The notes under the pieces: model-generated
What the model was told of the DNA's origin: nothing
Database searches by the model: none
Seen by the model: the letters and a program-made list of their open reading frames with translations, nothing else
Made by a program: the position numbers and the translations under genes
Shown: in pieces, positions 15,112 to 64,000 of the stretch
Layout of the letters: every line of letters begins with the position of its first letter
How positions within the stretch are numbered: position 1 is the stretch's first letter
Source: Balanoglossus misakiensis
Taxonomy: Eukaryota > Animalia > Hemichordata
Assembly: GCA_040954595.2 (NCBI GenBank)
Contig: CM082581.2
Location: 8,082,059 to 8,146,058, forward strand
DNA: 64,000 nt
Direction: 5' to 3'

Positions 15112-15696
15112 GTACCATTTTTCTGTCATTTTCCTCGGAACTTGTAAATTTGTAGTTTTATATTGATCAGGAATGTTCGATTGTACGTCAGCGTAGGCAC
15201 TTCAGGGAAGTTTTGGTACGTCAAAAAAAATCAAGCTTTCAGGTGAATCCGCGTGTGAGGTAGAAACGAACCCCCAACCAAAGGTTGAGCCCTGCAGCGC
15301 AGAGATCACGACAAAGAAAGATGGACGAACCAAGTGTGTGCACCTGGAAGCAGTACTTCCCGCACGTGGTCACTCTGAACCAATGGAAATCTCTGGTCAC
15401 AGCTGTACACTTTCCGATGGAGGCTGACAGGAAAGCAGTCTTTGCTTCGTGATTGGTCATGCTCTACACCAGGCGTTGTTGTACGTACATGTAACAATTC
15501 CTTCCATTGTTTTCCCCTATAGAAACGCCCTCGGCATTGTACACAGTGAAAAGTAATCAATATCCATGAGACACCAGATTTCGAAAAAGTGTTGAATGCA
15601 TTTACTTAGTATACTTTTAATATTGGTCTGTGCGATGACGTATAGTTATACACACACGCTTTATATAGTGTTCTGCTGTGTACTCTGGGAATATTT

Positions 15697-15970
15697 AATG
15701 AATGAATGAATGAATGAATGAATGAATGAATGAATGAATGAATGAATGAATGAATGAATGAATGAATGAATGAATGAATGAATGAATGAATGAATGAATG
15801 AATGAATGAATGAATGAATGAATGAATGAATGGATGGATGGATGGATGGATGGATGGATGAATGAATGAATGAATGAATGAATGAATGAATGAATGAATG
15901 AATGAATGAATGAATGAATGAATGAATGAATGAATGAATGAATGAATGAATGAATGAATGAATGAATGAA
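15697..15970. repeat. (AATG)n microsatellite with internal (GATG)n block
   Basis: Direct reading; explains the FIHS-repeat ORF. Confidence 0.98.
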
Positions 15971-18900
15971 ACCTTTCCCAGCGACAAAAGAGTGAAGAAA
16001 ATCTGGAACTTCGATAAAACCAGGACTTCGTTACGACTGCAGCCGCTCCACAATAAAATGCAAACTATCGTTTCATCATGATGGGGAAGATAACCGAGGC
16101 GACAGGCGACCCCGAGATCCGACGTCTGCGTGGCGGGGTGGGCCGGCGCTTGATTGACGAAAATGGAAAACACTGCCTCCAAATTCCAAGATGTCTCTGT
16201 AGTCTCGGATGGTTCAGATCAGAAACCTCACCAACGTGTCGCCAGCAGGAGGAAATCGAAAAACGATAAAAACGGTTTATGAGAATTATAAAGACCAGTA
16301 TTTGTGTTCTTAATTCGATTCATTGTCAAAATGAACCGCAACTTAGGCAAACAGTTGTTCTTTCTCAGCATAAAAGCGGCGTGTAAAACTTTTATAACCC
16401 CGGTATTAGTTTGTAAAAGGGGCAGAGCATTAAGCCGTTTACCGGCCAAAAAAGGAGCAGGCAGTTCGTTGATGGTGGAAAGTAATTTAACGGTCTTCAA
16501 TAATCTGTAGTTGTTTCTTGGCGGTGTCAAATGTCACGCAATCCCCTTTCCGTTTACAAATGTCCATTCCATTTGGTTTATGGTTATAGAAATAGACGCC
16601 ATGTCGATTTTCTTACTGTGGAATTATATGAATGTTTGGGAGATATGTTTCGAGTGGTATGGGCAAGGTGGATTTTTAATCCATGTGACGTTATAATCGA
16701 ACGGGACATCTTAAAAGTCTGAGGATCGACCGTAACGGAATGGCGACCTGTTCCTGTCAAAACCGCGCGGGTGCATGGGAAGCTTAGATAAACCAGATGG
16801 CGGCTCGATTTAATCGGAACTGTTCGACAACTTCCGTTTTTTTCACATTCAATACTGGTAATCATCACAACAACAGACCAAATTAACCACAATGGCAACG
16901 ACAGATATTTCGAGGACATCTACCTAAAGGAGTGGACCACTGTCTAGATATTAACAAGAGCCATCTTCTGAGCTACATTACGGGGGGTGTCGTCCTCATA
17001 CTACTCTCACTACACTGTCCATCAGACAGACAGGAGCATAAACCAAGGGCATTATGGGGGGAAAGAACACTGCAATGCCAGTCCCCCTAGCTCTGTAAAA
17101 ATAATAACGAATCGAACTCCCTACCTGGGACTAACAGACGCCATGGTAAACAGCTGACAGAGATATAATGATCTCAAATGGGCTAATGAATACAAATCAG
17201 ATTTGGAACAGACAATTTAATAGGTCAGTTTATATCTTGATGAATTTTCAGTTTTTATAATTTCATCCATCAAAGATTAAGCTGACTCCAACGTGACCAA
17301 CGGACTCGATGCGCATTCATCAAAACTCGATCGCCGACCAAACTGGCATCCGAGGCTTGTACACCCCTTAATCCCGAATACGCGTTAATTTTCATTAGTC
17401 CTTCTAAATGTTAGGGGGCATCATCCTTTATAAGTTTTTGTCCATTATGTTCTTAATTCGCAATTTACGCACCCATTATGAATAAGGCGACCCCATTTGA
17501 CTGGAGAGCGCTTAATCAAACGCAGATCTGTTTCAAATGTACCTCTTTTTGTACTGTATGCGTATGCTCGGGACGCGCGTGCGTAATTAACGCACAAGCG
17601 TGGGAAATTGTCAATTTCATTGTAACTATGGCAGTAGAGTTTTAAATTGTCCAACACTGAAAATTATTTTTCTACTTTCGCCGTGTTGATTGTGGTGTTG
17701 ATTGTTTTGTTACTGTTACCCAAAATAGTTCAGGGTTAGATTCCACCGGTGAAAATAATAGCATTACAGTGGGCCGAATTGAATACTGATATTCAGTAAC
17801 GATTTTGAATTGACGTGTCGCGGAACGGTGGAGACAATTTTACTCGGAACTGTAGCTGATTGGTCGAAATCGAATTATGATCCGAATAATTATGTTAATC
17901 CCAGGCGAGATAGAATTTTGTGGCTTAACTTTGTGTATCAGGAAAAAATAATTTTGGGAACGGAAACAGAAAATTGTTCAGGAATTTTCAAACTGATATT
18001 ATGAATAAATACTCCATTTCCTCCTCTATGTATATGACCCGGTGTAGAAACAGTGCTTCAGACATTCATTTCGCGGCAGTATCGTCCCCTCTCAGGAACT
18101 TGCTGGTTTTCTATCCCCCAAAATGACGTCATGACACAACCATCATCCTCTCTGGTACAAAATGTGAGAGGCCGAATCTGAGGTCAACATAATGTTTTAA
18201 CGATGTCATTTTTTTTCATTTCGTTATTTCAGTGAACTTTCTCACAAGCAGCGCCAGCAAAAAAGCCACGTTTAAGTCTCCAACTTGCGTGCCAGTCCCG
18301 ATTTTATTATTTTGAATAATAAATTTTAAAAGCGGTTTAATGTCTGTGAGACATTAAATGTTGTTTTCCACGCCAAACATCGCTTTATCACACTATCCCA
18401 CAACGCATGCGCGTTGAAGTCATCTTTTAGGTGACGTACTTTTTTCAATGAATTATTTGTATCCTAAATTTTTGCTCTAAGTGTGTTTAAATGCATCTTT
18501 GATAGCTGTTGCAAGAAATGGTGGTGTTAAATACAGCTTCGGGTGTTTTAAGAGTGAAAATGATTGGGATGTACGACATATATATCGAGGCAGCTCCTTG
18601 GTAACCATTTCCTTGGCCACGTTGCGCACGGCCTTTCTCTTAACATTCATGTATTTGCTCACTTATGCGTAAAATAACGGCAATAACTTTTCTTTTCTCT
18701 CGTCGGCGTTCGAAATTCAAAACAACCTGCAACGGAATTAGAAGGCGATGCCAATGCACCGCCACATTTTGGGCCTGTCCGCGTGAAAGGAAATTATACG
18801 CTTGGAATGGGCTCGAAAATGGACGGCCAACCACTGCGCGCGAAATTGCTTACCTTCAAACGTGATGTCTCTGTCGTTTCTTCATTTCGCATTTTATCAA

Positions 18901-33156: not shown

Positions 33157-33633
<477 letters not shown>

Positions 33634-34088
33634 CTAGTGGTATCATTACTGCCGAAATGTTTCTTAAAGCTAAACACACTCTTTGGTTTGGAGACAGATG
33701 AAAGCCTATCATGGTGTAATTTTAATTGGAAGGGCATCTGGTCCACAAAAAATGACATATCAAATCGGTGGAGTGCTTTTGGACAGAGAGCAGACTCGCC
33801 AGAGTAATGGCTGGTTCCCACCACTAAAACTATTCGCGGGGTCAGGACAGTGTCACATGCAAAGTTTTTGACAAATAATCCCAGTCCACCCGTCCCCCAG
33901 ATAGTAATATAAAACTTGTTTTAAAAAGTCAATATGATTATTAAAGGAAATGTTGAATGGGAGTATGTTAATTGGAATATTGACGTTTGGCATTTGTTGT
34001 TTACATTGCTGATTGGTGTCAATACCATCATGGCTTTGGGAATTTTTCATATTACATTCGGGGATATAGTATTATAGTCAATACTTAC

Positions 34089-34695
34089 GTCCGCTCGCTG
34101 ACGGTGAAAATCTTGATGAGTCCAACCAAGGGAAAGTTGCCGTCGACCACGCTGAGGTTGTTTTATTGGCCGAAGACGATAGAGGAATTTCAGTGTCCTT
34201 CGCTCTGCAGTTGTCTTTGGCCGGACTCGGGTTGGGTTTGCTGAGGATGCCCTCCACGCTGAACGACGACGGGATGGAGGTGGAAGACAGCGGACGGTGA
34301 CTGTCCTTGTGGTGGTCCATCCTCGGGTGCTCCGGGCCCCGGTGGCAGATCATGGAGGCCACGCTGAAGGCGATGCTCTCCGGCGCCGTCGTCGCCTTGG
34401 CGTGCAGCGACGGCGGCGGCTTCAGGCTGGTCGGGGTCGCTGCTGTTGCTGTCGTTGTTGTTGTTGGCGATGATGATGAGACCGTCGCCGCTGTGGTAGC
34501 CGCAGCGGCAGCTGTGTTCATTGTAACCGGAGCGCTCTCCACGGGATCGTAGCTCGGCGTCTGTCTCCCCGAACTGCCACTACTACAACTGCCCGTGCTC
34601 AGGCTCTCGGCGGCGGCGACCGATGAATGTGAGGGTGACTCGAGTTTACAGAAAGCCGAAGTAGCGCTACTGAAAGTCAGAGATGTCTGCGACAT
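34089..34695 (-). CDS. Msx: Msx homeobox protein, exon 1
   Basis: ATG at 34695; Ala/Thr/Ser-rich, eh1 motif FSVEGIL, hexapeptide-like FPWL, RFSP; donor C|GTAAGT. With exon 2 it gives 1035 nt = 344 aa. Confidence 0.93.
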
Positions 34696-34844
34696 GACGA
34701 CACAGGCTCAACAAGTTTGGAGTGAAACGCAGGAAACATCCAAGCGTTGTTTGTCTACTTTCGTTGTTCCTCTCGGCTTGCTTAGGGGAAAAGTGACCAT
34801 CAATAAGTCGAATATAAAATATGGAGGTGACTCTGCCAGGCAAG

Positions 34845-47892: not shown

Positions 47893-48029
47893 ATGGCGGA
47901 CAGTTGGAAGAAATTATCAAATGTTGTCTCTTTCACAGCGATTGTGAGCGAAGAGACTCTGAAAAGTCAACGCGAGAACATTCTGAGCGAAATAGAATCA
48001 TCAAGCGATCCACTGGGACCCACAGTCAG
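47893..48029 (+). CDS. EXOC6: Exocyst Sec15/EXOC6, alternative first exon 1a
   Basis: aaaATGGCGG start; MADSWKKLSNVVSFTAIVSEETLKSQRENILSEIESSSDPLGPTVR; donor AG|GTAACA phase 2, compatible with exon 2. Confidence 0.75.
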
Positions 48030-48345
48030 GTAACACTGCCCTCAAACTGTACCCTTTCAAGTGGGACAATGATCAACAGTTGAAATAGATAAGTGAATGG
48101 TGTGAACTGTTTCACTAAACTTCCTCATCAGTCGAGGTCATAAACAAACGTGTATTAATCATATTTGCTTGCGTTTGGTGCGACGGTGACGGGGTCGGGA
48201 CAGGTGAGCCCTCTCGACCAATCAAACAAACTCAAAAAGTTACTTGCAATGCACAGAGTATTGTAATATTATAAGCAGGGCTCATGGATAGGTATTCATT
48301 CTAACGGATCTGACGTCGACTGCCTGAATGAAGGCAGTTTTCAAG

Positions 48346-48443
48346 ATGGCGGACGTTGTAGATGTCATAGCTGTACGTGATCACGAAAGGCTAGTGTTGG
48401 AGATCGAAGAGTCTGATCCAGCTTGTATTGGGCTCACGTTCAG
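48346..48443 (+). CDS. EXOC6: Exocyst Sec15/EXOC6, alternative first exon 1b (canonical type)
   Basis: CAAGATGGCGG start (YY1-like); MADVVDVIAVRDHERLVLEIEESDPACIGLTFR resembles the vertebrate EHERILxEIESTDTACxGPTLR; donor AG|GTATAT phase 2. Confidence 0.85.
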
Positions 48444-49822
48444 GTATATAGTGATCAATAGGTTATTTTAGCCAGAAATTCCACCATTGCCTTCCCGTGT
48501 GTCGCAGAGATGCCCTCGTTTTTAGCATAAACGTCCAGTTATGATTGACATGTACATGATGTAGTGTACACTAACATATTGATTGACTTGAAACAAATGC
48601 ATTATAGTCTATCGTCAATCGGCGATCGGCCTGCAGTATCAATCTATGTGGTCCAGTATATTCCACACCGAACCTTGGGTTTAGTGACTGTTAATTTGCG
48701 TTTTCATGCCAAGGCAGATGTTTATCCCTAGTGTATGTGTTCTGCTGTCATGTTCTGTATACATGTACATGTATTGTATTGCTATGTCTGATGGGTGCGG
48801 TACAGTACATGTAGTGGCTGCAATAACACACGGATCATATTCTGTAGTTGTTGTTGTTGTTGTTATTATTATTATTATTATACATGTCACAGAATAGAAA
48901 TGTGTACAAGCGTTGGGTACTGAACTCACTGTAATTAACAATCGCCACTGATGCCCGGGTGCCCTAAGAGGCAGTGTTTTGCATTGGCTTGAGTATGTGA
49001 CATTTTACCTGTATATGAGTCATACATAACGGCCATGACCCCAGTTCATTAATCAAATGTTGAATATACATGTAGTCAGTTACAGTCTGCTGTAGCCAGC
49101 AAAAGTACTTATGTGTTATGTATTCATCATGCAATGAATGTGTATTCTGTAGCCAGAACATGTAGGAAATCACAATTAAGATGTCTGTGAAAGAATAGAC
49201 TCAGACTTCATAAGTGTTGTTGCATCATTAATCTCACAGACCGTGTTAATATTTCACTCACTACAGGCTGTTGTTTTAAAATTGCTTCTGAAATTGGATA
49301 TGTGCATTGTACATGTATGTGAAGCTGATTTCTTGATAGGAGGAATGCCTACATTGTATGTTTAGATAGGAAGTTCGGTATCTGGCAGTAATATCAAACT
49401 ATTGATATTTGTGTGAATATTTCTTTAACTAAGTGAGTATGGTATTCGTGAGAGCCAGCAGGTGAACATTTTCAGTGGTTGCAGTCAACAGCTTTTATTT
49501 CACATTTGTAGTTTTGCGGCACCCACCATTATGTTTGCTCATTGTCTCGAGAGAAAATGTGCATTGAGAGAATTGCACAATCATAAATCATAATCATAAT
49601 AATTAATATTTGATTCAATAGATGATAGATTACCGTGCAATGTGTATCCCAAAGCGAACTTTTAAACAAACTATATGCTCCCTGTTGAATAAATCCAGAA
49701 TGATTTTGCCTGGGAAAACGGGTGGAAAAATACCTGTACTTGATAAAAGTCTGCTGCAAGAACCAAAGGACCACTCTTGGACAGCCATTAACATTGCTTA
49801 TAATTTTGATTTGGCTCCCCAG

Positions 49823-49988
49823 AGCGATATATGATGGCAATGAACATGAGAAGTTTCTGGAACAGCTGGATGTCAGAATTCGAAGCCATGACAAGGACAT
49901 TGAGAGGATGTGTAACTTTCACTACCACGGCTTCACAGACAGCATTGCTGAGTTACTGAAAGTCAGAGGGGAATGTGAAAAACTCAAG
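49823..49988 (+). CDS. EXOC6: EXOC6 exon 2
   Basis: AIYDGNEHEKFLEQLDVRIRSHDKDIERMCNFHYHGFTDSIAELLKVRGECEKLK; AG/GT sites. Confidence 0.95.
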
Positions 49989-50167
49989 GTATGTACTCGT
50001 CAATTTTTCTGTCCACTCATTTTCAATTGCATCAAATTCTGCAATGTTTGCTGTTTGATTATTATGTGTTGTACATGTAGAATACAGTGAGTTATTATGT
50101 GCTTTTCCCTCAGGTAAAGAAGTTGTCTATCAGATTTCTATTAACTTGCACAATTCTTCTCGAACAG

Positions 50168-50306
50168 GGTCATGTCCTTGGCGCAAACAGAGAACTCCAG
50201 GACTCGGGAAGAGAACTGGTTGCCAAGGCAACTGAGTTGGAGCAACAAAGGATAATACAGAGAAACATTGTTGCAGCCGTGGAGCATTTACAGTTATGTT
50301 TACCAG
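50168..50306 (+). CDS. EXOC6: EXOC6 exon 3
   Basis: GHVLGANRELQDSGRELV..QRNIVAAVEHLQLCLP; AG/GT sites, phase 0 to 1. Confidence 0.93.
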
Positions 50307-50495
50307 GTGAGAATTCTGTTCAGTTGTTTGCCACATCTTTCGTTTGTGAACACTGTATTTTCATTGCGTGTATTGCTTACAAGAAGTATCTCAGAATTCC
50401 TGAGCAGAAAATAAAGATGACATCTTGGTCACACTTTCATCTGTACTACACAACTATCAATTTTTCATAATGATCTGTATGTCTTTTACCCCCAG

Positions 50496-50541
50496 TTTTA
50501 GAAATGTACACAAAGCTGAACGAACAGATGAAAAATGAAAG
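50496..50541 (+). CDS. EXOC6: EXOC6 exon 4
   Basis: VLEMYTKLNEQMKNER; phases 1 to 2 fit the neighbours. Confidence 0.92.
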
Positions 50542-50627
50542 GTGAGAAACAATAAAGCTCTGAGTAATCACATGATAAGCACAGTCAGTGTGTTTGCATG
50601 ACATTTCTATGATTGAAAAGTAAACAG

Positions 50628-50768
50628 TTGAATGCCACCTACTGCTAGATGCAGCATGTTTTCCATGGTGTTGGATCCGGCAAAGTGGCAGAGAGAAAAA
50701 AGCCAGAAAAACTATCCTTGTCTTTCTCTGCTCACCATCGGAGTCAGACTGGGCAAATTCTGGCGACA
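50628..50768 (+). repeat. 141-bp intronic repeat, copy 1 (copy 2 at 51550-51690)
   Basis: TTGAATGCCACCTACTGCTAGATGCAGC..GGGCAAATTCTGGCGACA, only a few substitutions between copies. Confidence 0.95.
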
Positions 50769-51100
50769 GATTTTATTCGCAACCAGGTATGATGAAATTT
50801 TGGGGCAAGCATCATATTGAATATTGAACAGAAGTATATGTCTACAACTTATTTGACATCCCAAATGTATTATGTACAAAGTGTTCTTTGTATTTCAAAT
50901 TCATATCCACGTATTGTATGTTGCTGGTAATCTATGATTTTATGGAATGTGGATGGGTATGATTGAAAGGAAAAATATTTTAGACTCGAGGAGAGTAAAC
51001 TGCACAGTGGACAGCACTCCATATGTTCTAAGAATGAAAAAGTCATGTCAACCCTTTAGCATATGCAATTGGGAGTTCAACATTAAATCTTTTTCTTCAG

Positions 51101-51305
51101 GTACTATCCGGCACTGAAAACTTTAGAACAGCTAGAACACACATACCTGCCAAGGGTCAAGGAATACAGGTTTTCCCAGATAATGAGAGAGAATATTCCT
51201 AAACTGAGAGAAAACATCAAAGAAGCTTCCAAGTCAGAGTTTGTCGACTTCCTGGAGAACATCCGGAAGCATTCGGACAGAATTGGGCAAGTTGCAATGC
51301 AGCAG
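51101..51305 (+). CDS. EXOC6: EXOC6 exon 5
   Basis: YYPALKTLEQLEHTYLPRV..DFLENIRKHSDRIGQVAMQQ. Confidence 0.95.
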
Positions 51306-51549
51306 GTTTGTTGGTTATATTTCAAGTATCCCATGGCTAAGTTGAAATTAGTTCCCTTGTCTAGATCTTAACACATGTACAAGACCTATAGTTTTGTTGT
51401 CACAAGTTTTACTGTACATTTCTATCTCAAAGGAGATTAGGATTATTAAGTAATAGTGAAAACAGACTTACACATATGTATATCCTACCCAGTATGCATG
51501 AGAGAGTGTATAATTTCCATGCGCTCATATACTGATGATGGAATACCCA

Positions 51550-51690
51550 TTGAATGCCACCTACTGCTAGATGCAGCATGTTTTCCATGGTGCTGGATCC
51601 GGCAAAGTGGCAGAGAGAAAAAAGCCAGAAAAACTATCCTCGTCTCGCTCTGCTCACCATCGGAGCCAGGCTGGGCAAATTCTGGCGACA
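51550..51690 (+). repeat. 141-bp intronic repeat, copy 2
   Basis: Direct repeat of 50628-50768. Confidence 0.95.
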
Positions 51691-51813
51691 TACCTCCAAC
51701 TGAAAATATAACATTGATTGTCAGATAATACTTCAATGTAATATATGACACATGGTGTACATGTACACTGGTTAATTTAAGGCTGTACTTAGTTCTGCGA
51801 TTGTTTTCGGCAG

Positions 51814-51978
51814 GCACAGAAGCAGAAGAGTGCCGAAGAAGACCTTCTGAAAAAGGGCAGGGCAGTGACTGGTCACGACAGAGGCAGCCCTATCAGTCCC
51901 CCAGAATCAGAAAGTCAGGACTCCAACCCATTTGCCGAAGATATGGATGAGATGTTAGATGAGGATGAAGATGAGGAG
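51814..51978 (+). CDS. EXOC6: EXOC6 exon 6 (acidic linker with NPF)
   Basis: AQKQKSAEEDLLKK..SNPFAEDMDEMLDEDEDEE; CAG|..|GTAAGT, 165 nt, phase 0. Confidence 0.9.
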
Positions 51979-52171
51979 GTAAGTATTTGCGCTCATTACC
52001 AGACGAAAACTTGAGGTGGTGATTGTCTGCTCTGTGATCTGATATGAAGCAATGTTAAATCAGAATATACCCAGTGCAACAAACAACTTGGTGTGTGTAC
52101 ATCTGATATGTACTTGTAGGTAATGTGCGTATTAAAAATGAAAATTGACTCCTCTAATGTGTTTTGTGCAG

Positions 52172-52324
52172 GAAACCAGTGCCCAGGACATGGTGGATTT
52201 TGCACCAGTGTACAGGTGTCTCCACATCTACTCAGTGCTGGGATCAAGGGAACAATTTGAAACATATTACAGATCGCAGCGAAAAAAACAAGCTAGATTA
52301 GCATCACAGCCACCTAATAACATG
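52172..52324 (+). CDS. EXOC6: EXOC6 exon 7
   Basis: ETSAQDMVDFAPVYRCLHIYSVLGSREQFETYYRSQRKKQARLASQPPNNM, a Sec15 hallmark segment. Confidence 0.96.
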
Positions 52325-52468
52325 GTGAGTTTTATCCATGGTGGATATTCTCGTGCATGCATGTCTATATCTGTGTGTGTAAGCACATGCATCAGAGAAA
52401 TATTTCAGGACTGCAGCAATGTGAAATTGCATCCCAGTGTTTCTCATTCTCTGCTCTCTTTTTTGCAG

Positions 52469-52515
52469 TATGAATCTCTCAATGGCTATTTGAAGTATTT
52501 CCACCAAATTTTAGG
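52469..52515 (+). CDS. EXOC6: EXOC6 exon 8
   Basis: YESLNGYLKYFHQILG; AG/GT sites. Confidence 0.93.
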
Positions 52516-52677
52516 GTGAGTTATTCACTGTTTTTGAGTAATTCTGGGAATACTTTTTCTTGACTTATGTCACGTATGCAGACCAGGGTCAGCGTGCAGT
52601 GTTACCACAAACATTGTTTGACATTATGACAATACATGATGCATTGTTCTTAATGATTGTTATTTGCAATCTTTCAG

Positions 52678-52798
52678 GTTCTTTGTTGTGGAAGATCACA
52701 TCCTCAGCACAACACAGGGTTTAGTTACAAGGGAATACCTGAACGAACTGTGGGATATAGCGTTACATAAGATAGTGGCCATACTTAGAACTCACTCG
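52678..52798 (+). CDS. EXOC6: EXOC6 exon 9
   Basis: FFVVEDHILSTTQGLVTREYLNELWDIALHKIVAILRTHS. Confidence 0.95.
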
Positions 52799-52984
52799 GT
52801 AAGTTCAGAAGCCACTGCGCTTTCCGCACACAAAACTGTGTAATATTGAAAAAAATAAATGAGGAATTATACTTCCATCATATTCCTTGTATTGAACCAA
52901 CAGATTTTGTGATGATCTTAGAAATGACAACTTTGGTTTTCTGAACTGCTGTTAATGCTGATGTATGCCTTTGATGTTCCACAG

Positions 52985-53056
52985 GCCTACTGTACAGACG
53001 CGACACTTCTACTGGAAATCAAGAATCAAATCGTGCTGTTCTGTCACACTATTACA
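52985..53056 (+). CDS. EXOC6: EXOC6 exon 10
   Basis: AYCTDATLLLEIKNQIVLFCHTIT; AG/GTAAGT. Confidence 0.93.
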
Positions 53057-53215
53057 GTAAGTACGCCTATCAGATCAGCTGCCCCTTTTATCACTCATCA
53101 ACTCCACTCGGCTGGTATGGTTTTGACTGATGTTACTGTTATATTTATTAGACTGTCACACAATACTTGTACCATACTGAACCCATATCACGTTGATTCT
53201 AAATTCTGTTCTCAG

Positions 53216-53419
53216 AGCTATGGTTACCAAGCATCCAAACTTCTTGAACTCCTAGTCGAAATCAAGGACCAGTACAACGAAATCCTGATGAAAAAGTGGG
53301 TGCAGGTATTCCGGGATATCTTTGACGAGGATAACTACACATCCATGTACGTGGAGTGGGAAGAGGAGTATAACCGAGTGACGGATCAGTTTCCCTATCA
53401 CGATGGAGAGCTTGAAAAG
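53216..53419 (+). CDS. EXOC6: EXOC6 exon 11
   Basis: SYGYQASKLLELLVEIKDQYNEILMKKWVQVFRDIFDEDNYTSM..FPYHDGELEK. Confidence 0.95.
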
Positions 53420-53528
53420 GTGAGGAGCTCAAAGAAGTTTCCATGTCCATGGAGTTTGAAACACTGAGTATCTGCATATCATCTCAGACAGTGATGTTAA
53501 TGATCAATTAAATATTTTTGGTTTTCAG

Positions 53529-53638
53529 CAATCCTATCCCAAAAGGCTGCCATTTTCGGAATTTGTGCCAATGACCTACCACCAAATAAAGGAGTTCATC
53601 TATGCATGCTTGAAATTCTCGGAAGATCTTAATCTAAG
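53529..53638 (+). CDS. EXOC6: EXOC6 exon 12
   Basis: QSYPKRLPFSEFVPMTYHQIKEFIYACLKFSEDLNLS. Confidence 0.95.
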
Positions 53639-53768
53639 GTGAGCTTTATTCTGCCAGCTGTAATGATTGAATATACTTGTTGATAAAGATATTAAAATTC
53701 TGTGAAAATTAGAGATCCAAGCTTTCGTTAACATGCTCTTACACTGTACTGAATTTTTTTACTTTCAG

Positions 53769-53880
53769 TCACACAGAAGTAGATGATATGGTTAGAAAAT
53801 CAGCCAATCTGTTGTTGTCACGGACACTTAGTGGCTGCCTGTCAGCTCTCATCAAAAAAGAACACCTAGGATTAGCAGAG
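53769..53880 (+). CDS. EXOC6: EXOC6 exon 13
   Basis: HTEVDDMVRKSANLLLSRTLSGCLSALIKKEHLGLAE. Confidence 0.95.
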
Positions 53881-54014
53881 GTCAGTTTCTCAATTTCATA
53901 TTATTTGATCAGCCATTCTCTCTCACCCTAGGCCTTCATTAACCCTTTCAGTTTGGTAGGAAGTATTGTTGATTGAACTCGTAAACAAGTGTATGATTCT
54001 TTTTTTATCTCCAG

Positions 54015-54094
54015 CTGATTCAGATTACAATTAATACCACCCACCTGGAAAAATCATGTGTTTATCTCGAAGAATTCATATCCAATATAACTGG
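54015..54094 (+). CDS. EXOC6: EXOC6 exon 14
   Basis: LIQITINTTHLEKSCVYLEEFISNITG. Confidence 0.95.
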
Positions 54095-54324
54095 GTAAGT
54101 AGCAAATGTAACACAATATGCATCTACTCCTTAACTAACTTATAATTTTCATCACATATTTGTGTGTTGAAGTTTTGTATGTTTTCTCCAGACTTGGCCA
54201 TGATTTCAATTGAAATTTACAGGTGACCTGAATATATTTGTTTAACCTCGGAAATGCCTGAAGAAATGAATAACTAATAATAACCACAGTAATTAGTCAC
54301 CTCTGTTGTTCCAACCACAAATAG

Positions 54325-54559
54325 TGCTCCAGCTGACAGTAAACACGCCACAAGTCTCCAAGGCGTCACCATCTTCAAAGACGCGCGGAACGAGGCGGAA
54401 CAACAGATTTACAGATCGCTCAACGCCAAGATGGACGACTTCCTGGAGCTGGCGTCTTACAACTGGAAATTGGAAGAGTCCAAGGGTCATTCCAGTGGCT
54501 ACCTCATGGACCTGATCGCCTTCCTGGAAAGTAATTTCATCGCCTTCAATCATCTTCCT
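54325..54559 (+). CDS. EXOC6: EXOC6 exon 15
   Basis: APADSKHATSLQGVTIFKDARNEAEQQIY..DDFLELASYNW..SGYLMDLIAFLESNFIAFNHLP; donor GTAAGT phase 0. Confidence 0.94.
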
Positions 54560-56155
54560 GTAAGTTGACATTTTATTTTATTTCTCTCTCTCTCTCTCTA
54601 GTCACCCTGAACAGTCTCACCAGAAAATGTATAATCTGACATTACTTTGATGTCCAGGGTGTGGTTAACAAAAAATTCAAATAAACACATTCTCTGTATT
54701 GATAAAAAGAGATATGGATTCATGAAGAAGAAAATTAAAATTAATTTATTTCTCAGTGTTTTTTTTTTTAAAGTAATAACATTAAGGAATGATTTGCCAC
54801 ATTATTACAATAATACAAACTCACCATAACATTCTGGCAATCAGTTTGAAATATCGACGTGTATGGTTACTGAACTATTTGCATCATCATTTTACAACAT
54901 AATCAGATATGCAGATGCTAGCTAACTTTTCCTGGAATCATGTACACTGACATTCCACAATATATGGACAGAGAGAGGTGAAGTCCACTTCCCTCTGCTG
55001 TCCTGGAATTTGAAGTTATTTCTGGAAAGTCTGTTAACATCCTGGAAAAAATGTGATTCACATATAAATGCAGTTGTATAGTGGCAGTTTTTTGTTAACA
55101 AATTATGACACAATTTGTATATCATCAGTCTTGGAAAGTTGCATTTTTTTTATACCGGAAAGCTGTGCAATCCCTGTTCAAGTCCTTGACGTGAGGTTAA
55201 ATTTCAATTAGCATACAATCCATGGTTTTATTATTGACACACCTCTTGCACTGATCTCACCAGCCATGACTTGGAGTGAAATTACAAGTACACACTTTAA
55301 AGCACAGACATGACATGCACTTGTGAGCATTCTCCACCAATAGCAGATTTACAATCCACACAGTGGCACTGTGATTTTTCAGCAGCAGATGAGTGATTCC
55401 ATTGCTAATTCCTGAACCCCACCAACCCCCTCATCACCCCCTCCCCCACCCCAACTTCACTCCCACAGTTCTCCAAAATCTACACTTTCCAAACTTGAAT
55501 ATACCGGTATACTATTATGCATATATATATGTATGTTAAGACAGGTGGATGTGGTTAGCATTGATTTGTAATGTCCTTTGCTGAGAACCAGTTCATTTGC
55601 ATGGCCTTGACTGTTTCGGTTGCTTGCATGGAATCACCAGCGCACTTGCAAAACCATTCCCCATTTTGCCAAACACTTAAGAATAAACTGAGACCACTTT
55701 CAAATACGGAGCAGTTGGCAAAATTTGTTTGACACTACACAAACATTGCCATCATCACACGTCCATACACATGTACATGTACATACATATCCTATTCGTG
55801 AATTACCATTGCTTTGCTGGTGTTCATGTTCAGGTCATTACTGTAGTCTGTTTAAGTCTTTGTGCTCACCAGAAATAAAAAGAATCCATATTGTTTTGCC
55901 AAGTCGTATTTATATACTATGAGCGCTTTATAAATAGTAACTACATGTATACCCAACCCCATTAAAAACCAGAAAAATGCAATCTTTAAATACAGCCATG
56001 ACTTCCTACAAAGACAAAAGAGAAGTGGAATAAAAATATCAACCATACTCACCTTTACCACTTCTTCAACCAGAAAGGGGATCCATTCTATTATTATTTG
56101 ATATTTTATTTTGTCGTTTTTTGAAGTCCTTTTTATTTTTCACCCAATTTTCTAG

Positions 56156-56179
56156 GGTTTCACAGCGCTTGATTTCAGC
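56156..56179 (+). CDS. EXOC6: Candidate 24-nt alternative microexon of EXOC6 (GFTALDFS)
   Basis: Long U-rich tract ending TTTTCTAG, 24 nt open in phase 0, perfect GTAAGT donor. Confidence 0.6.
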
Positions 56180-56702
56180 GTAAGTAAACCAAGATACCCT
56201 GTTCTTGTAGTTTTGCCATGACATGCTCATGTGAGGTCCCTCTTTTAACCATAAAACACAAACTTCTCTCTTTCAGTTATAACCCACTTCTGAACATCAT
56301 TCATGTACTGTACATTGCATGAGTATATAACCTCCATTTCCCATTTCAACAAGGGCTGGACAGATCAGTGGGTCTTTCACTATATGTGGACATTTTTTTC
56401 TAAATGTACAAACAAAAAAAAGTATTCAAAATGTATGTTTCATATAGCATTCAGTGTGCCTATCTTGGTTCGTGAATAGGAACAGAAAAGATTCCGGTTT
56501 ATAGATACAAAGTTCCCTCTAGACCATCTTCAAGCCAAAATCCTACGTGCGTCTTTGGTCAGCATAGTCAAGATTCATTACTGATCTGTTTCACCTTCAT
56601 CATAGGTCATCGTTCAGAGGCAACTCTGATTTGCATGTTGTAGCAATACTTTTCATTTTTATTTCTAATTGGACTGGTGCTAAATGACTTTGATTATTGT
56701 AG

Positions 56703-56759
56703 AGTTTGGGTTCTTACCCCTATTCTTTGAAAAAAGTGGAACAATTCAATTATATCTTG
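56703..56759 (+). CDS. EXOC6: Candidate 57-nt alternative cassette exon of EXOC6 (SLGSYPYSLKKVEQFNYIL)
   Basis: TTGTAG acceptor, stop-free in phase 0, TG|GTAAGG donor. Confidence 0.35.
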
Positions 56760-57904
56760 GTAAGGATCATACCAACCGTGTTGGGAAGGTGGATGGACAC
56801 TTAATATTTTTGTTGTCTTTCTAATATTTTGTTTTATATGGGGACTCTCACAGCATGCTTCTGGCAAACTACATTATCACTAACAATCCAGATTTTCCCC
56901 CCATGTGTCAACCAAATTAACTCATCAAGTGAGGTGGATCATAGACATGCCAGTTATATTAACCTCGTCAAATTAGGAGCATCCTAGATACACCAGTCAA
57001 AAGAATTAGTGTAGGAAGTGCTTTCTGTATGTATAAATTTTGAGAGACTGACAGAGCCAGTCAGATGGACAGATGGATAGATGATGGCCAGACATAATCA
57101 GATATACACTACTCTATCAAATGTCAGTCATCCTGGATCACACTGTCCATCAGAATAATTCACTTTTACATAGTGAGGGTCATATTATGATTTTTACAAC
57201 TGCATGAATCATATGAATCATATCACCCATCTTTAGTGTTGTTCACTGATATGAGAATTTACAACAATGAGAGTGACTGCCACATGGAACTTGATGTGTG
57301 TTCTTCAGCACCTTGTGATGTAGTGGTTAGTGAGTGTGGCATTTGAGTGTCTTTGGATGGGAAGATATACCAGCACACTGTAACATGGGGTACTTCAGTA
57401 TTAGGAAAGTCACACACTTACTGCTACCATGTCCCTAATCTGAGCCCTAAATGGTAGGGGATATACAGGGGGTGGGGAGGGGATGGGGTAACTGTCCTAG
57501 AACCCAAAAGGCTGAATGTACCCAGACAGAGCTGTTGATGGCATGGCTGAGATGTGCTTGTACATTGCTGGTTTTCGTATTAAACTTGGATGTATTTCCC
57601 AGAGCGGTGAATTTGCATCTGATGCATTATATTTTACTGTAGTAGTATGTAGTGATGGCATGGCGGTGCATATTTTTTTTCACAGTCTTGCATTTGATTA
57701 TACATGTTTAATTCAAATCCTAACAAATAATTGTTTTCTTTTTCTTTTTTTTTAGCATAATTACCCTAGCTAACCGGTCACTTCCATATTTTACCCATAG
57801 ATTGACTAACCTGGTTATAGTAAAGAACTATACTAATAGGTGGAAGAGAAGTAAGGTTGCACATGGCATGCTTGTAAGAGAAAATCTGTTATCTTCATTT
57901 TCAG

Positions 57905-58046
57905 GGTAAAGTTGCACAGACTGCGTGTATGTGTGCCTGCAAACATCTGGCTAACTCGTTAATGCAGTTTCTGATCGACCCGGACGTGAAAAGTATCTCC
58001 ATGGGTGCCCTTCAACAGTTTAATTTAGATGTTATTCAGTGTGAGC
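57905..58046 (+). CDS. EXOC6: EXOC6 exon 16
   Basis: GKVAQTACMCACKHLANSLMQFLIDPDVKSISMGALQQFNLDVIQCE. Confidence 0.96.
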
Positions 58047-58189
58047 GTAAGTACATCCATCAGATTCTGAATACGATTTGACTGATAAATTGCTTGGTTT
58101 GTTTGTTTGTCCGTGCAGCTACATCAGTTAAAAATCAATAGACCAACATCTCAGATCACAATTTTTCCACAATTTTTTTTTTCATGCAG

Positions 58190-58376
58190 AATTTGCAAAC
58201 TCAGAGCCCGTACCAGGGTTCCGCGATGGTGCACTACAGATGACGTTTCTAGAACTACGGCAGCTGCTTGACCTCTTCATGACCTGGGATTGGTCCTCCT
58301 ACTTTGCCGACCACGGTCAGCCGAACAGCAAATACCTGAGGGTCAGTCCGCAGCGGGCCCTGACCCTGCTTGAGAA
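58190..58376 (+). CDS. EXOC6: EXOC6 exon 17
   Basis: QFANSEPVPGFRDGALQMTFLELRQLLDLFMTWDWSSYFADHGQPNSKYLRVSPQRALTLLEK. Confidence 0.96.
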
Positions 58377-58512
58377 GTAAGTGTATGTCTGTGCGCGTAT
58401 GTACACCTGGGGAATGGCCAATGAGAGTGCAGAACAATAACTGCAGTGAGTGACATGGCATGAATGATTCTGATACTTTTCTTACCTTTCACTTCCCCTT
58501 CATGTTTTTCAG

Positions 58513-58636
58513 GATGAAAGATGCGGACAAGAAGAAGAATTTACTGTCAACGTTCAAGAAGAATGAGAGGGACAAGAAGAAACTGATGGATACAGTGCAT
58601 AAACAGCTTCGGGCTCTAGCCTACGGTACAAGCTAG
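58513..58636 (+). CDS. EXOC6: EXOC6 exon 18 (last coding exon)
   Basis: MKDADKKKNLLSTFKKNERDKKKLMDTVHKQLRALAYGTS-TAG. Assembled CDS is 801 aa with exon 1b or 814 aa with exon 1a. Confidence 0.95.
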
Positions 58637-60441
58637 GAGCGAAAACAACCTGTCACTGTGGCTTTATAAAAAAATATTATCGAGAACATCAAACAGAAAC
58701 AGCTTCGCGGCATGGCCTTGTGCAAAGAGACTGTTGCAGCAAACTGTTGTGCTGAGATGTTGGAAATCAGTGGCTTCTTGACGCAGCATGCCAGGCGCTA
58801 ACAGCAGAAAAACACTCAAGCTGTACTCTGCGTGTCCATCCTTTGCGATGGCATCGATACAAAGAAGCAAATGCGAATCTTGTCTCATCTGAAGAGACAA
58901 AGTATTTTTTGTTGTTGCTAAAATTGCCCTCCAATTTTTTTTAAAGTCTGGATTTTCAAATGATTCAGTGATTTTTTAAAGGCAGTGAAACCATGCCAAA
59001 AATGAGCTGTCTTTTGGAGCAGTCAGATTTTATCTGTGAGATCTGTTGTCTTGGAGTGTGTCATGTCTCAAACTCAGAGGGAGAGAGTGCAGGAGAGTGA
59101 GTATGTGTGTGTGTCAGTATGTGTGTGTATCTCTGTGTGTCTGTGTACAACCCATACACGTCTTTTACAATGGGCATCTTATGTGTGTGTAAAATCTGCT
59201 TGATGCAGAAATTTCGCAAATCATGAATCTAACATTACTGTATTTGTGAATGCTAATTGTATTAAGGTTATTACTGGTCTTTGTTAATCACTCTGTCAAC
59301 CCAATACACGGCATTCAAAGAAAAATGGTACAAGATTTTACCATGAATCATGTGTAGTCATTGAAATAAGCGGAAGGGAGGATAAGAGAAAAGACCTACG
59401 TTTTGCAATATGGTAGCTTGGCGTAAGAGGAAGGACACCACTCAACATTTATCTGTAGTTGTCAAAACACTTTTTTTGAAATTTACAATGCACTTTGTAG
59501 AGGTAATTTGCAAAATACCCCAAAAGTAAGTTTGACAGATGTATTTTTCATTTTTGGCTGACTATTTTGTCCTTCCCCCGGTGCAAATGTTACTTTTATT
59601 TGCTTCATGTTCATTCCAAGTGTTATTTTCCCCCAGAATATTATTCCTGTCAGTTACTCTGGTTCGATAATCATAAGTTGCTGTTTACATATTATGAGAT
59701 TTTCACTTCAGTGTTCAACAGTAGCGTTTATGCCCCCCTTCAGCAGATGTAAACATGAAGATGAATGAAATGGTGCTGTAGCGATATCAAAGTTATGTGT
59801 ACAACTGATATGATATTTTGTGCAATATTGCTAGTCCTTAGCAGCAAGACAGGCTGAAACTTGCTACCACATGCACCGTCTCCCTCCTTGAATCATATCA
59901 CAAGTTATCTTGTTGCTAAAAATCACAGACCCTCAAGGGTCTACGATAAAAATCAAGTTGAACTTGTGTCATAAAGGAGGTGGTTTTGGGTTTTATTGAT
60001 GGCAGTGCCTGTCACCTGCACACTGTGTGCCCCAGCCAATAGAAGTGCAGCCAAACACAGTATACAATACAGGTCAGTTGACTGCACATTTGACCTAAAT
60101 TCTGCCCTGTTATCCGGTCAGGTAACAACGACCAGAAACCATGATTATGCATTTGTTATGCATATCAGTGCAAAAATAATGCACATCATGTGACTATGAT
60201 TTGGCCAATCACAGCACAGAAAATACACCGAGTGTATTGTTACAATACCAAATTGTTTGTCTGCACAGTGCTACCAGTGTCCGTGATGTGTGAAGGAGAG
60301 GGCACTGCTGATTGTGTCTTCCAGTGTCAAGTTAAATAGACCAAGTATTCAGCCTGTCTTGCAGTAGTCTTAGTCTGAAAAATCTCTGTAAGTGTACATA
60401 GTACTCTTTTTGTATTTCAGCGTATATCTCCTGCCACAATG

Positions 60442-60473
60442 AATAAAAATAATAAGCTTTTGAGTAAAATAAA
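60442..60473 (+). terminator. Candidate EXOC6 polyadenylation signals
   Basis: Two AATAAA (60442, 60468) followed by GT-rich sequence, at the point where CpG depletion ends; implies a ~1.8-kb 3'UTR. Confidence 0.6.
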
Positions 60474-62339
60474 ATTTGGCAGTGTGTGTCAGTTACAATA
60501 TGTGCTTCCTTGGTATTCAAAAATTAAACCCATCGAAAGAAAAATCTGCTGGAAAGGTGTTGCATCCGGAAGTGATGCGTGCTGAACACCTCTGACGAAT
60601 AGTTGTGGCCTAATTAGCATAGCCAAACATAAGCCAATGAACGACGGGGAGAAGCGACGGTCGCTGGAACTTATCCAATCGGATACCATAAATGTGGTTA
60701 CGTCACCCCCTCATTTCGCACTTTTGTATTCAAGCATAATTCCGTCTCGTTTCTGGTCACCAAGTGCACGAATAGTTTATTCTTACGCCAGGCACTAGGC
60801 GTCTCATTTCGTTACAAATAGTCTCGTTAACTGGTACGCTGACAAAGGATGAATTCCGAGCAAGTTCCTCCGTGTGTGGGGCTGAACACCCCTCCATCGA
60901 ATGTTTCTGTCCGACTTTGCGCGTCCAAAAAGCGCCGAACTTTCAGCCAATCGGAAGGCGCGACCGCTCTTGCATCATTTGTTGTTGATGTAGTCGTAGC
61001 AACAATGGAACACTCGAAGTGCTTTTGGTATTCATGTATTCGGATGCTTGACGGAGCTATCGGAACGCCCACTTTTTTCGCCAGAAAAAGTGCTTAAAAG
61101 CTGCTGGAAGTTCTCGGCTGATATCAAGCAATTTTAAAACAGTTATCTACATGTTGATTGTCGGAATATGGCAAACAACTTTACACAAGAAGTGAATTTG
61201 GACAATGTATGTCCACTTTTTGAGCGTAAGTGCCAATAAATGGTGAGATTGTTAGAAGTGAACTATAGAGTAGCTTGGAAGTATTAGGGCGAACGGTGCA
61301 CGTGGTATTTTCAAATTATCCGACCAGAATTAAATTCCAAAGACCCACAAAAAATTAGGCGTAATAGGATCCGCAAAAACACACAATTTCCGCTCAGTCC
61401 GCGTTCAATATAAACATACGTGTGTTACAAGAATAGTATATAGGTCATTAATTTTAGAATAAACTGTAAAATTACCAAGGAGCGTGGAAAGTTATCGAAG
61501 CAGCGTTGGACCTCTAAACAAACTTTTGGCATTCATGTTTCTATAAATGGTGTTGTCATCGACACCGTGACAGACAAAAGACACTAGGAGCGCCATTCAC
61601 CCGTTGTCAAGATTGCCGTTTCTCTTCGTCTGTGCATGCGCACTATACGGATTTCCGGTCGCTGACGTAGACAATGACACGCCCATCGGAAGATCCTATA
61701 TCATGTCACGGTCTCTCCCAGACTGTGATCATGTGTATATTTAATTACACGTGACGTTTATCAATGTTTTACACGCTAGTCGTCACGGTGGTCATGGAGA
61801 CAACTAATTTTTCGTCCGCTCTTTGCTTTTCCGGGAAACTTGCGAAGCGGACTTGATGTGGAACACGTCTCCGCGCAAGACTGATAGATCGACGAAAGGG
61901 ATCCGAGAATGGACTCTCTTAAATTATGTCAAATCTTGGGTCTGTGAAAGCTCCATGGCCAATTATAATAAAATGCAGTATGTGCACAAATATTTCACCA
62001 GGAAGACAGGCCATTATAAAACAAGGTTCCTCAAATATCTCCAAAATGAGTACATAACTTCACAATAACCCGTCAGAATATCGATCATTCATGTCTTAAA
62101 TGGTGTCCATATTTTCAAGTGTAATTTCAAATGATTGCGATTGCGTATGTATACACACGGCACATCTCACAGCACTTACGCATGGTAAATAAATGTAGCT
62201 AGTACGTGTACACAGTAGTTCTCATATGCTAAATTTAGATAATTACAAAACTATGGAAAATGGCCGAAACAGCTTGTTAAATTGGAGAAATGGGCCGTCG
62301 TAAACGAGGTTCCGCCGGAATGCCGCCCCCGACAGCAGC

Positions 62340-62570
62340 TACTGACGTAAATTGCCAACACGCTCTCTTTTCAAAGATATCCTGTGTAAGCCCTAACCGC
62401 CACACACACACGGTACCGGTGTATGCAAAAGTTCCTGTCTATTCGCGGAATTGGCCGAAGTGAGCTCGGCTATTTTCGGCTCAAGTGGGGATTCCCTGCG
62501 CCGGGTCTACCGTAACCATTGAATGTGTTTCGCGTCATCGACCGGACGTTGAGGACACAATATAAAGAGC
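62340..62570 (+). promoter_or_regulatory. Inducible-type promoter: CRE-like, STAT/GAS, NF-kB and TATA
   Basis: TGACGTAA 62343-62350, TTCGCGGAA 62442-62450, GGGGATTCCC 62487-62496, TATAAA 62561-62566; also TTCCGGGAA at 61829-61837. Confidence 0.65.
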
Positions 62571-62686
62571 GCTTGTTCACTGGTGAAAGTAACAGAATTA
62601 CTAGCAAGCAAGCAAGAACGATCGAACACATCGCAATAGTCCTGCAACCAGAAAACTTCTTCACGACAACTTACCCACGAGAAAAA

Positions 62687-62726
62687 ATGACAACTTCAAG
62701 GAAAATCTACAATTTTGCTGAAATCG
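62687..62726 (+). CDS. Secreted cytokine-like protein, exon 1 (start of signal peptide)
   Basis: aaaATG MTTSRKIYNFAEI+G; donor G|GTTAGT phase 1, ~120 nt downstream of TATA. Confidence 0.7.
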
Positions 62727-62860
62727 GTTAGTTGCAAATAATGTCTGATTATAATCAACTTTGCTCTCAATTTTTTCCCTCTTCGTCGTGGAAATTCTGG
62801 TTTGCACTATTTCTTATTATTTTCCAGCCTAACGATAACATAATCTTTCTTCTCCAACAG

Positions 62861-63012
62861 CGGTTGCAGTGGCCTTAATGTTGGCAACGTTTATCAATGG
62901 AGCACCAACTGTTGCCGCCCCAAGTGAAGACACGGTGGCAGATTCCTACACAACTTTGTACCAGAAGACAGTCGCTTTCTATTCGGAACATCAAGAAATC
63001 TACAAAAAATTT
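62861..63012 (+). CDS. Secreted cytokine-like protein, exon 2 (signal peptide + helix A)
   Basis: Branch point CCTAAC and TCTTTCTTCTCCAACAG acceptor; AVAVALMLATFINGAPTVAAPSEDTVADSYTTLYQKTVAFYSEHQEIYKKF; GTAAGT donor phase 0. Confidence 0.85.
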
Positions 63013-63905
63013 GTAAGTATAGTGATCTCATCACTCAGCCGATTACATAATGTGGTTTTAAAAATAGCTGATTTTTTCATTACCGCATAATTAATTGTTG
63101 GATCCGGGAAATACGGGCTGGATTTAGGCTTATAGGTTCTCTTGTATTTATGTTTCAATGTAGTATTTTATTCCACTCTGGACCCGCTCTGATTCAACAA
63201 CATGTGTGTATGTCTGCACAGTTGAGAAACTGGATCACGCGACCGTGTAATGAGGCCACGGACCACGTTGACTGACCCAAATCATAATATTATCCGAGTA
63301 CACAACATGTGGTTGTCCGCTCCCGCGGCTATTCCACTCAGTAGCAGGTTAAAGGCCAAACAAGCGAGACTATTAAATACGCGCGCTGAAGCCAACTTCG
63401 CTTATATTATGAAACACTGTACAGTTTGCATTTACTTGTACATGTATTCATGTTACGGAGATCTGTTGGTGAAGCCGGAAAAAACTTCAAAGGTGTTTGA
63501 TTTTTTCACTTAAAAGAAGCTCCAAATAATGTCACATTTTACACTGAGGGTCCATGAGTTGTTGCGCACTTTACGGAAATCCAGACGTGCAAACTTAAAC
63601 ATTGGGCTTGTTCTGTGGTGTGAAGTCAAGGAGGAAGTCAATTTAGTATTTACTCGCTGTCAGTGGTCGCGAGGAGACACGCCCAGGCACTTTGATACCC
63701 CGTGAGGCCTTGTAGATACACATACGTTCGAATGTTCGGTTGATTTGTCATCAATTTGCCATTTGTGAAAAAGTACACCCGCACGAAACCCAAAAGTGCG
63801 TGGTGATGACGCGATAGTCAACCGCCTTTACAATGAGGAAATCACAGAGCTATTTTTAGCCCAGACTAATACTTAAATTGTCTCCTCCTTTTTTGGTGTT
63901 TACAG

Positions 63906-64000
63906 AAAAGCATCCGCCTTGACAACGAAGACATCATGGACGATATCCACAGTTTCAATTTCGAAGGTTTGCCAACTCCAGTCTCAAGATTCTTGGCATT
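63906..64000 (+). CDS. Secreted cytokine-like protein, exon 3 (partial, runs off window)
   Basis: Pyrimidine tract plus TTTACAG acceptor; in-frame KSIRLDNEDIMDDIHSFNFEGLPTPVSRFLA.. Confidence 0.75.

Follow-up and report, generated by a model that had tools for sequence, protein, structure and literature searches.

A candidate long-chain helical cytokine gene downstream of EXOC6 in the acorn worm Balanoglossus misakiensis

Does the acorn worm Balanoglossus misakiensis, a hemichordate, possess a secreted ligand of the interleukin-6 (IL-6) and LIF family? The question is raised by the end of a stretch of 64,000 nucleotides (nt) of its genome (assembly GCA_040954595.2, contig CM082581.2, positions 8,082,059 to 8,146,058 of the forward strand), which we call the window, and in which an initial annotation proposed the first three exons of a helical cytokine gene. 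From its sequence, we consider it very likely that this spliced gene, on the + strand at 62687-64000, is real, likely that it encodes a secreted protein, and probable that it is inducible. That the protein is a long-chain four-helix cytokine of the IL-6/LIF/CNTF/IL-27/G-CSF type has, in our judgment, slightly better than an even chance. The window holds only the 5' part of the gene, the remainder lying beyond its end.

The first step is to establish that there is a gene at all. The three joined exons, whose coordinates are given in Table 1, form a stop-free frame of 95 residues with introns in phases 1 and 0, and the second intron falls after exactly 64 codons, directly behind Phe64: both the spliced frame and the position of this junction after an aromatic residue had been claimed, and both are borne out. 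Splice sites were scored with matrices trained on the 18 donors and 17 acceptors of the neighbouring gene EXOC6, on which the codon model was also trained. Of the 3377 AG sites of the + strand, 10 score at least as well as the acceptor at 62861 and 23 at least as well as that at 63906; among 3895 GT sites, the corresponding counts are 48 for the donor at 62726 and 296 for that at 63012. The intronic part of the donor at 63012 is the most frequent form found in EXOC6 (7 of 18). Within 62600-64000, the gene model uses the best donor and two of the three top-scoring acceptors. The codon-position score is 0.118 in frame, against -0.08 in the other two frames, and is reached by 2 of 5000 random segments of the region 1-32,500, a figure that is somewhat generous since the exons were chosen for being open; a held-out control, exon 2 of the Msx gene, scores 0.223.

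Two alternative splice sites were discarded: an acceptor near 62828, inspected by eye, because it leads into an in-frame stop, and the GT at 63980, which would end a phase-0 exon of 75 nt and has a score of -1.7. A script scan of intron 2 found, at the thresholds used, no open phase-0 cassette exon.

What does this frame encode? The N-terminus is basic, hydropathy peaks at 2.72 over residues 15-25, and a small residue, Gly27, precedes an Ala-Pro pair; on this hydropathy profile, the proposed signal peptide is likely present and cut after Gly27. The amphipathic helix of about 28 residues that was said to follow it is also recovered. AlphaFold, applied to exon 2 alone and with no alignment, predicts a helix at residues 36-56 and 58-63, with a block predicted local distance difference test (pLDDT) of 86-91 in the core; this predicted helix of 28 residues (36-63) begins 8 residues past the probable point of cleavage, and a single residue separates its end from the phase-0 intron. 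With the Fauchere scale, 45 of 10,000 shuffles attain its hydrophobic moment (taken at 100 degrees), and with the Eisenberg scale 397 of 10,000 do; two heptad stripes run along the helix, V39-L46-F53-I60 and Y43-T50-H57-F64. The model of exon 3 alone, of low confidence (pLDDT 68.5), has a short helix at 71-78, a coil, and the start of a helix at 88-94, which would tentatively fit a loop. The 95 residues contain no N-glycosylation site. This arrangement is more specific than the intron phases: a long amphipathic helix after the cleavage site, its stop at a phase-0 intron on an aromatic residue, and then a loop suggest, as far as the models go, the first part of a helical cytokine.

Known cytokines offer several points of comparison. 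In LIF, CNTF and OSM an intron follows an aromatic residue at the end of helix A; in the group of CLCF1, IL-27 and CNTF a Leu-Pro pair lies about 20 residues into the loop; and exons of 40 and about 150 nt are similar in size to those of G-CSF and of the LIF/CNTF/CLCF1/IL-27 group. A short first exon ending in phase 1, a phase-0 intron that closes helix A after an aromatic residue, and Leu-Pro in the loop are found in LIF, OSM, CNTF, CLCF1, CT-1 and IL-27p28, and likewise in the candidate; however, no sequence or structure match between them was detected, and the Leu-Pro of the candidate, within an 'EGLP' stretch, is possibly intronic. CNTF lacks a signal peptide, whereas the candidate has a predicted one. 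The first coding exon of human G-CSF has 40 nt, as does that of the candidate; G-CSF and IL-11 are five-exon genes with no detectable similarity to it. Mammalian IL-11, whose first intron lies 7 bp after the start, contains no cysteines (PMC3271213), and the visible part of the candidate is also free of them.

The exon-phase argument of the initial annotation is weaker than claimed. In IL-6 genes, including those of lamprey and hagfish (PMC13081863), one intron lies inside the signal peptide and the next within the domain, and the two visible introns of the candidate fit this, with phases 1 and 0; but such phases are unspecific. Further along the protein, the start of helix D carries the aromatic residue of site III, a Trp or, in binders of LIFR, an FXXK motif (PMC7378365, PMC9601804), and the AB loop is reported to be poorly conserved (PMC9601804). 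A length of 150-280 residues has served as a criterion in the search for IL-6 (PMC13081863). A precedent for the proposed role exists among invertebrates in the Unpaired proteins of Drosophila (Upd1-3), secreted JAK-STAT ligands of Domeless (PMC7378365, PMC13203501); they belong to a different phylum, no shared sequence with the candidate is shown, and the latter matches no Pfam family at E<=10.

The region above the gene provides a second line of evidence, which the present analysis adds to the earlier proposal. A motif of the cyclic AMP response element (CRE), one of the gamma-activated sequence (GAS) bound by STAT, an NF-kB (kB) site and a TATA box all lie within 400 bp above the ATG, and no other ATG stands between the TATA box and 62687. 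The distal cluster listed in Table 1 contains one of the 3 perfect TTCCNGGAA sites of the window. Promoters of the IL-6 type use NF-kB and CRE sites, and the pathogen- and wound-inducible profile of IL-6 is the one that would be expected for the candidate from these motifs: the set suggests an inducible immune or wound gene. The kB, GAS and CRE motifs occur together in 1 of 159 tiles of 400 bp, the one above the ATG, while about 0.05 tiles are expected from the single-motif tile counts of 2, 22 and 30; this result is suggestive and no clean test, because the motifs were picked after seeing the sequence and the tiling is anchored on the ATG.

If the gene is a long-chain cytokine, its working could be as follows. 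On infection or injury, NF-kB, CREB/ATF and STAT would become active at the cluster of sites in the promoter, the motifs being present and their binding presumed. Three or more exons would be spliced, as the splice sites and coding statistics indicate, and the signal peptide would be cleaved after Gly27 to leave an Ala-Pro N-terminus. Helix A would correspond to residues 36-63 and the AB loop would start with exon 3, while helices B to D would be encoded past the end of the window. By analogy with the family, the secreted bundle would bind a class I receptor of the gp130/Domeless type and trigger JAK-STAT signalling, and the GAS sites may provide positive feedback. Saccoglossus is reported to have an IL6R-like receptor (PMC13203501), and signalling through NF-kB and IRF exists in acorn worms (PMC10210618). 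The complete claim, namely that this is the first ambulacrarian IL-6/LIF-family ligand, an acorn-worm cytokine of the gp130 type inducible by NF-kB and STAT, is tentative, and we give it a little less than an even chance.

Besides the post hoc choice of promoter motifs, a number of observations weigh against a cytokine, and we gather them here. The intron phases alone say little, because phase-1 introns are general in genes with signal peptides and phase 0 is the commonest phase among the introns of EXOC6 (9 of 17). Promoters with NF-kB and STAT sites also mark many immune genes that are not cytokines. The visible mature part has 68 residues, and its single amphipathic helix is compatible with many folds. 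Residues 1-95 contain no cysteine, whereas IL-6 keeps two to four cysteines (two in hagfish and in some fish); since the missing ones are N-terminal in IL-6, it is unlikely that the candidate is IL-6 proper. Vertebrate IL-6 adjoins TOMM7; upstream of the candidate, the neighbours recognised by the Pfam scans described below, which covered 298 of 320 frames, are EXOC6 and, beyond it, Msx. As to the phases, a surplus of phase-1 introns around position 20 is described for animal genes with signal peptides at large (PMC1626468).

Doubt also bears on the 'EGLP' stretch with which the loop was claimed to end. A rival donor, the GT at 63966/63967, lies within this stretch, in phase 1 and with a weak score of 4.9 bits. 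The first 60 nt of exon 3 are strongly coding-like; the 33 nt past 63966 score intron-like, with an exon:intron likelihood ratio of 0.22-0.40 in four cross-validated models, and held-out exon blocks score as low in 2-3 of 72 or 3-6 of 102 cases. The coding model, for which two genes served as training set, may give a loop rich in Pro, Ser and Thr too low a score. The EXOC6 exons contain, in 2406 nt, 7 decoy donors as strong as the one at 63966. The intronic part of the latter scores 1.6 bits against 9.3 for donor 63012, and the frame stays open past it, which happens by chance in 26 of 51 EXOC6 intron starts. By a rough estimate from these scores, exon 3 is about twice as likely to continue past 63966 as to end there, leaving about one chance in three that 'EGLP' is non-coding. 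Use of the rival donor would remove 'EGLP' and give phases 1, 0, 1, off the cytokine layout.

The searches for relatives, finally, were blank. Their queries were single exons of 31-50 residues, and such short queries rule out close relatives only. A word search with exon 2 against longer proteins retained none of 38 candidates, and one with the exons pooled in a single alignment none of 95, the pooled profile being weak because its two rows are not homologous. In a phmmer search of 1.84 billion representatives, the two proteins returned were rich in repeats and were discarded. Pfam gave no family for any of the three pieces at E<=10, the sequences of the PDB gave none for exon 2, the ESM Atlas nothing for exon 3 and, for exon 2, hypothetical clusters that were all short and below 0.9, and Foldseek no match for the exon-2 model, a single helix. 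Among the PDB sequences, exon 3 retrieved two RyR2 chains (E 0.2 and 1.6), discarded as chance-level. The window contains no paralogue of the candidate. In metagenomes, peptide patterns of exon 2 occurred in 597 stretches, none confirmed by tblastn, and a 23-base pattern of exon 3 in 4 loci, near-identical to one another, which were judged chance matches and discarded because they are unrelated to the window outside the pattern. Missing sequence matches are to be expected in the IL-6 family, since BLAST failed to find even the IL-6 of lamprey, for which a structure-guided search was needed (PMC13081863).

Which other readings, then, must be weighed? The most serious is that the gene encodes a secreted protein of the immune or wound response, inducible but no helical cytokine; its helix would be the neck of a coiled coil, a prodomain, or part of a lineage-specific effector, and its defining C-terminal domain (a C-type lectin, a fibrinogen-like domain, an IL-17 or TGF-beta cystine knot, a TNF-like domain) would lie beyond the window. 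A signal peptide, a phase-1 intron and a promoter with kB, GAS and CRE sites are generic to secreted immune genes, and the heptad repeat of the helix is compatible with a coiled coil. The phase-1 donor at 63966 would suit a phase-1 domain exon, extracellular modules being often bounded in that phase (PMC1626468), and in IL-17 the similarity sits in the C-terminal part (PMC4517768), which here would fall outside the window. In Saccoglossus, the earliest genes to respond to poly(I:C) are enriched for unannotated ones (PMC10210618). Against this stand the layout of the visible part, in which the spacing from cleavage site to helix, the end of the helix at a phase-0 intron and the loop behind it are those of a helix A, the frame that remains open at 63966, where decoys of equal strength are common, and the lack of any Pfam prodomain match (E<=10). 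We regard this explanation as unlikely, and yet it deserves serious consideration.

The candidate could also belong to another class of helical proteins: an interferon or IL-10-like (class II) cytokine, a short-chain one (IL-2/IL-4/GM-CSF/CYTL1-like), or a hormone of the GH/prolactin/EPO/leptin type. The genes of GH, prolactin and EPO share a short first exon ending in phase 1. In vertebrates, humans included, MSX1 adjoins the cytokine-like gene CYTL1, and paralogues of EXOC6 and MSX presumably sit on chromosomes that carry clusters of short-chain cytokines. In its exon layout the candidate differs from CYTL1, since in short-chain genes, CYTL1 among them, a single phase-0 exon covers both the signal peptide and helix A, which is shorter there, against a phase-1 exon of 40 nt here, and the predicted helix of the candidate, with its 28 residues, is long-chain-sized. 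Lancelets are reported to possess homologues of interferon (bioRxiv 10.64898/2026.05.30.728932); however, according to that preprint, interferon genes have phases 0-0-0-0, unlike the phase-1 intron 1 found here, and its Foldseek screen saw no interferon fold in other invertebrates. The region upstream of the candidate has no GAAANNGAAA site. All told, we hold these classes to be improbable.

That the gene is non-functional as modelled, made of chance exons, a pseudogene or a non-coding transcript, is very improbable: no relative was found even though the collection searched includes proteins of three acorn-worm species, but the model uses top splice sites, its coding score is one that 2 of 5000 background segments attain, and the TATA box, the single ATG, the likely signal peptide and the confidently predicted helix are all concordant.

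Returning to the long-chain cytokine, its significance would lie in a gap among the ligands. According to a BLAST survey of 2026 that included hemichordates, IL-6-family ligands are found in vertebrates only, apart from the Upd proteins of insects, and the IL6R-like receptor, JAK and STAT are older than these ligands (PMC13203501). A paper of 2025 states that the ligands were not found outside jawed vertebrates, naming tunicates, amphioxus and cyclostomes (PMC12284397); they have since been extended to lamprey and hagfish (PMC13081863). A hemichordate ligand is plausible and timely because an invertebrate IL-1 (PMC13736523) and the lancelet interferon (bioRxiv 10.64898/2026.05.30.728932) both came from structure-guided search. 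In a literature judged mostly by title or abstract, and with few subscription journals covered, we found no hemichordate or echinoderm ligand described as a class I helical cytokine. If the candidate is such a ligand, then the long-chain cytokine gene, its intron positions and its inflammatory promoter logic predate the split between chordates and the hemichordate/echinoderm lineage; the missing input of JAK-STAT signalling in invertebrate deuterostomes would be supplied, its origin would become directly testable, and the neighbourhood of Msx and EXOC6 would give an address at which to look for orthologues in other deuterostomes. The testable package would comprise one gene, a predicted pattern of induction, a candidate class of receptor, and this syntenic address.

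Table 1. Features of the candidate gene, its upstream region and its neighbours, in window coordinates
Feature	Position	Strand	Remarks
Coding exon 1	62687-62726	+	40 nt; ATG, 13 codons and 1 base, phase-1 GT donor; begins the likely signal peptide
Intron 1	62727-62860	+	134 nt; GT-AG, phase 1; read-through hits a stop within two codons
Coding exon 2	62861-63012	+	152 nt; encodes the hydrophobic core of the likely signal peptide, the probable cut behind Gly27 and the predicted helix 36-63; ends with Phe64
Intron 2	63013-63905	+	893 nt; GT-AG, phase 0; GAS site with one mismatch at 63102
Coding exon 3, 5' part	63906-64000	+	minimum length 61 nt; frame open for all 95 nt up to the end of the window; acidic loop, short predicted helix, 'EGLP'; candidate AB loop
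Distal motif cluster	61663-61837	+	CRE half-sites at 61663 and 61752, perfect GAS TTCCGGGAA at 61829; candidate enhancer, presumed function
CRE/ATF-like site TGACGTAA	62343-62350	+	consensus match only
STAT (GAS)-like site TTCGCGGAA	62442-62450	+	one mismatch to TTCCNGGAA; consensus match only
NF-kB consensus site GGGGATTCCC	62487-62496	+	one of 2 such sites in the window
TATA box TATAAAG	62561-62567	+	126 nt above the ATG
EXOC6/Sec15	47893-58636	+	Pfam PF20651, PF04091; upstream neighbour of the candidate
Msx homeobox gene	33157-34707	-	Pfam homeodomain at 33160-33633

We now turn to the remainder of the window, where the gene order is Msx (- strand), EXOC6 (+ strand, stop at 58636) and the candidate (+ strand). 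Pfam scans covered 298 of the 320 stop-to-stop frames of at least 62 residues, the remaining 22 all lying beyond 58,300. In the 33 kilobases beside Msx (1-33100) they gave no credible match, and this region is possibly a regulatory gene desert; three overlapping frames at 15609-16218 on the - strand have weak, sub-threshold matches to PTS_EIIC and are probably a simple repeat. No Rfam family is present in the window at gathering thresholds. The divergent first exon of Msx matches three proteins only, the Msx of Ptychodera flava (XP_070540892.1, 63%), Glandiceps talaboti (XP_077992674.1, 50%) and Saccoglossus kowalevskii (NP_001158403.1, 49%), all of them acorn worms; this alone would assign the window to an enteropneust, likely one distinct from these three.

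Between EXOC6 and the candidate, two further segments can be pointed out. Past the EXOC6 stop, at about 59920-60445 on the + strand, a chain of short segments bounded by AG and GT, with an AATAAA near 60440, resembles by eye the non-coding exons of a long 3' untranslated region or of a host gene for non-coding RNA. The segment at about 60560-61000 is CpG-rich, with several CCAAT boxes, an ETS-like site CCGGAAG and a CRE half-site, and resembles a further promoter.

In EXOC6 itself, Pfam matches to its exons span 49,700-58,400 on the + strand. By hand annotation, two alternative first exons that carry an ATG and have related ends, 47893-48029 and 48346-48443 (+ strand), both splice in frame to the exon at 49823, giving stop-free products of 814 or 801 residues. 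The intron 54560-57904 holds, at about 56155-56180 on the + strand, a possible micro-exon of 24 nt, noticed by eye, with a good acceptor and a GTAAGT donor. Two near-identical copies of an element of about 150 bases, also seen by eye, lie in separate introns at about 50620-50780 and 51550-51690: they are probably a small interspersed repeat.

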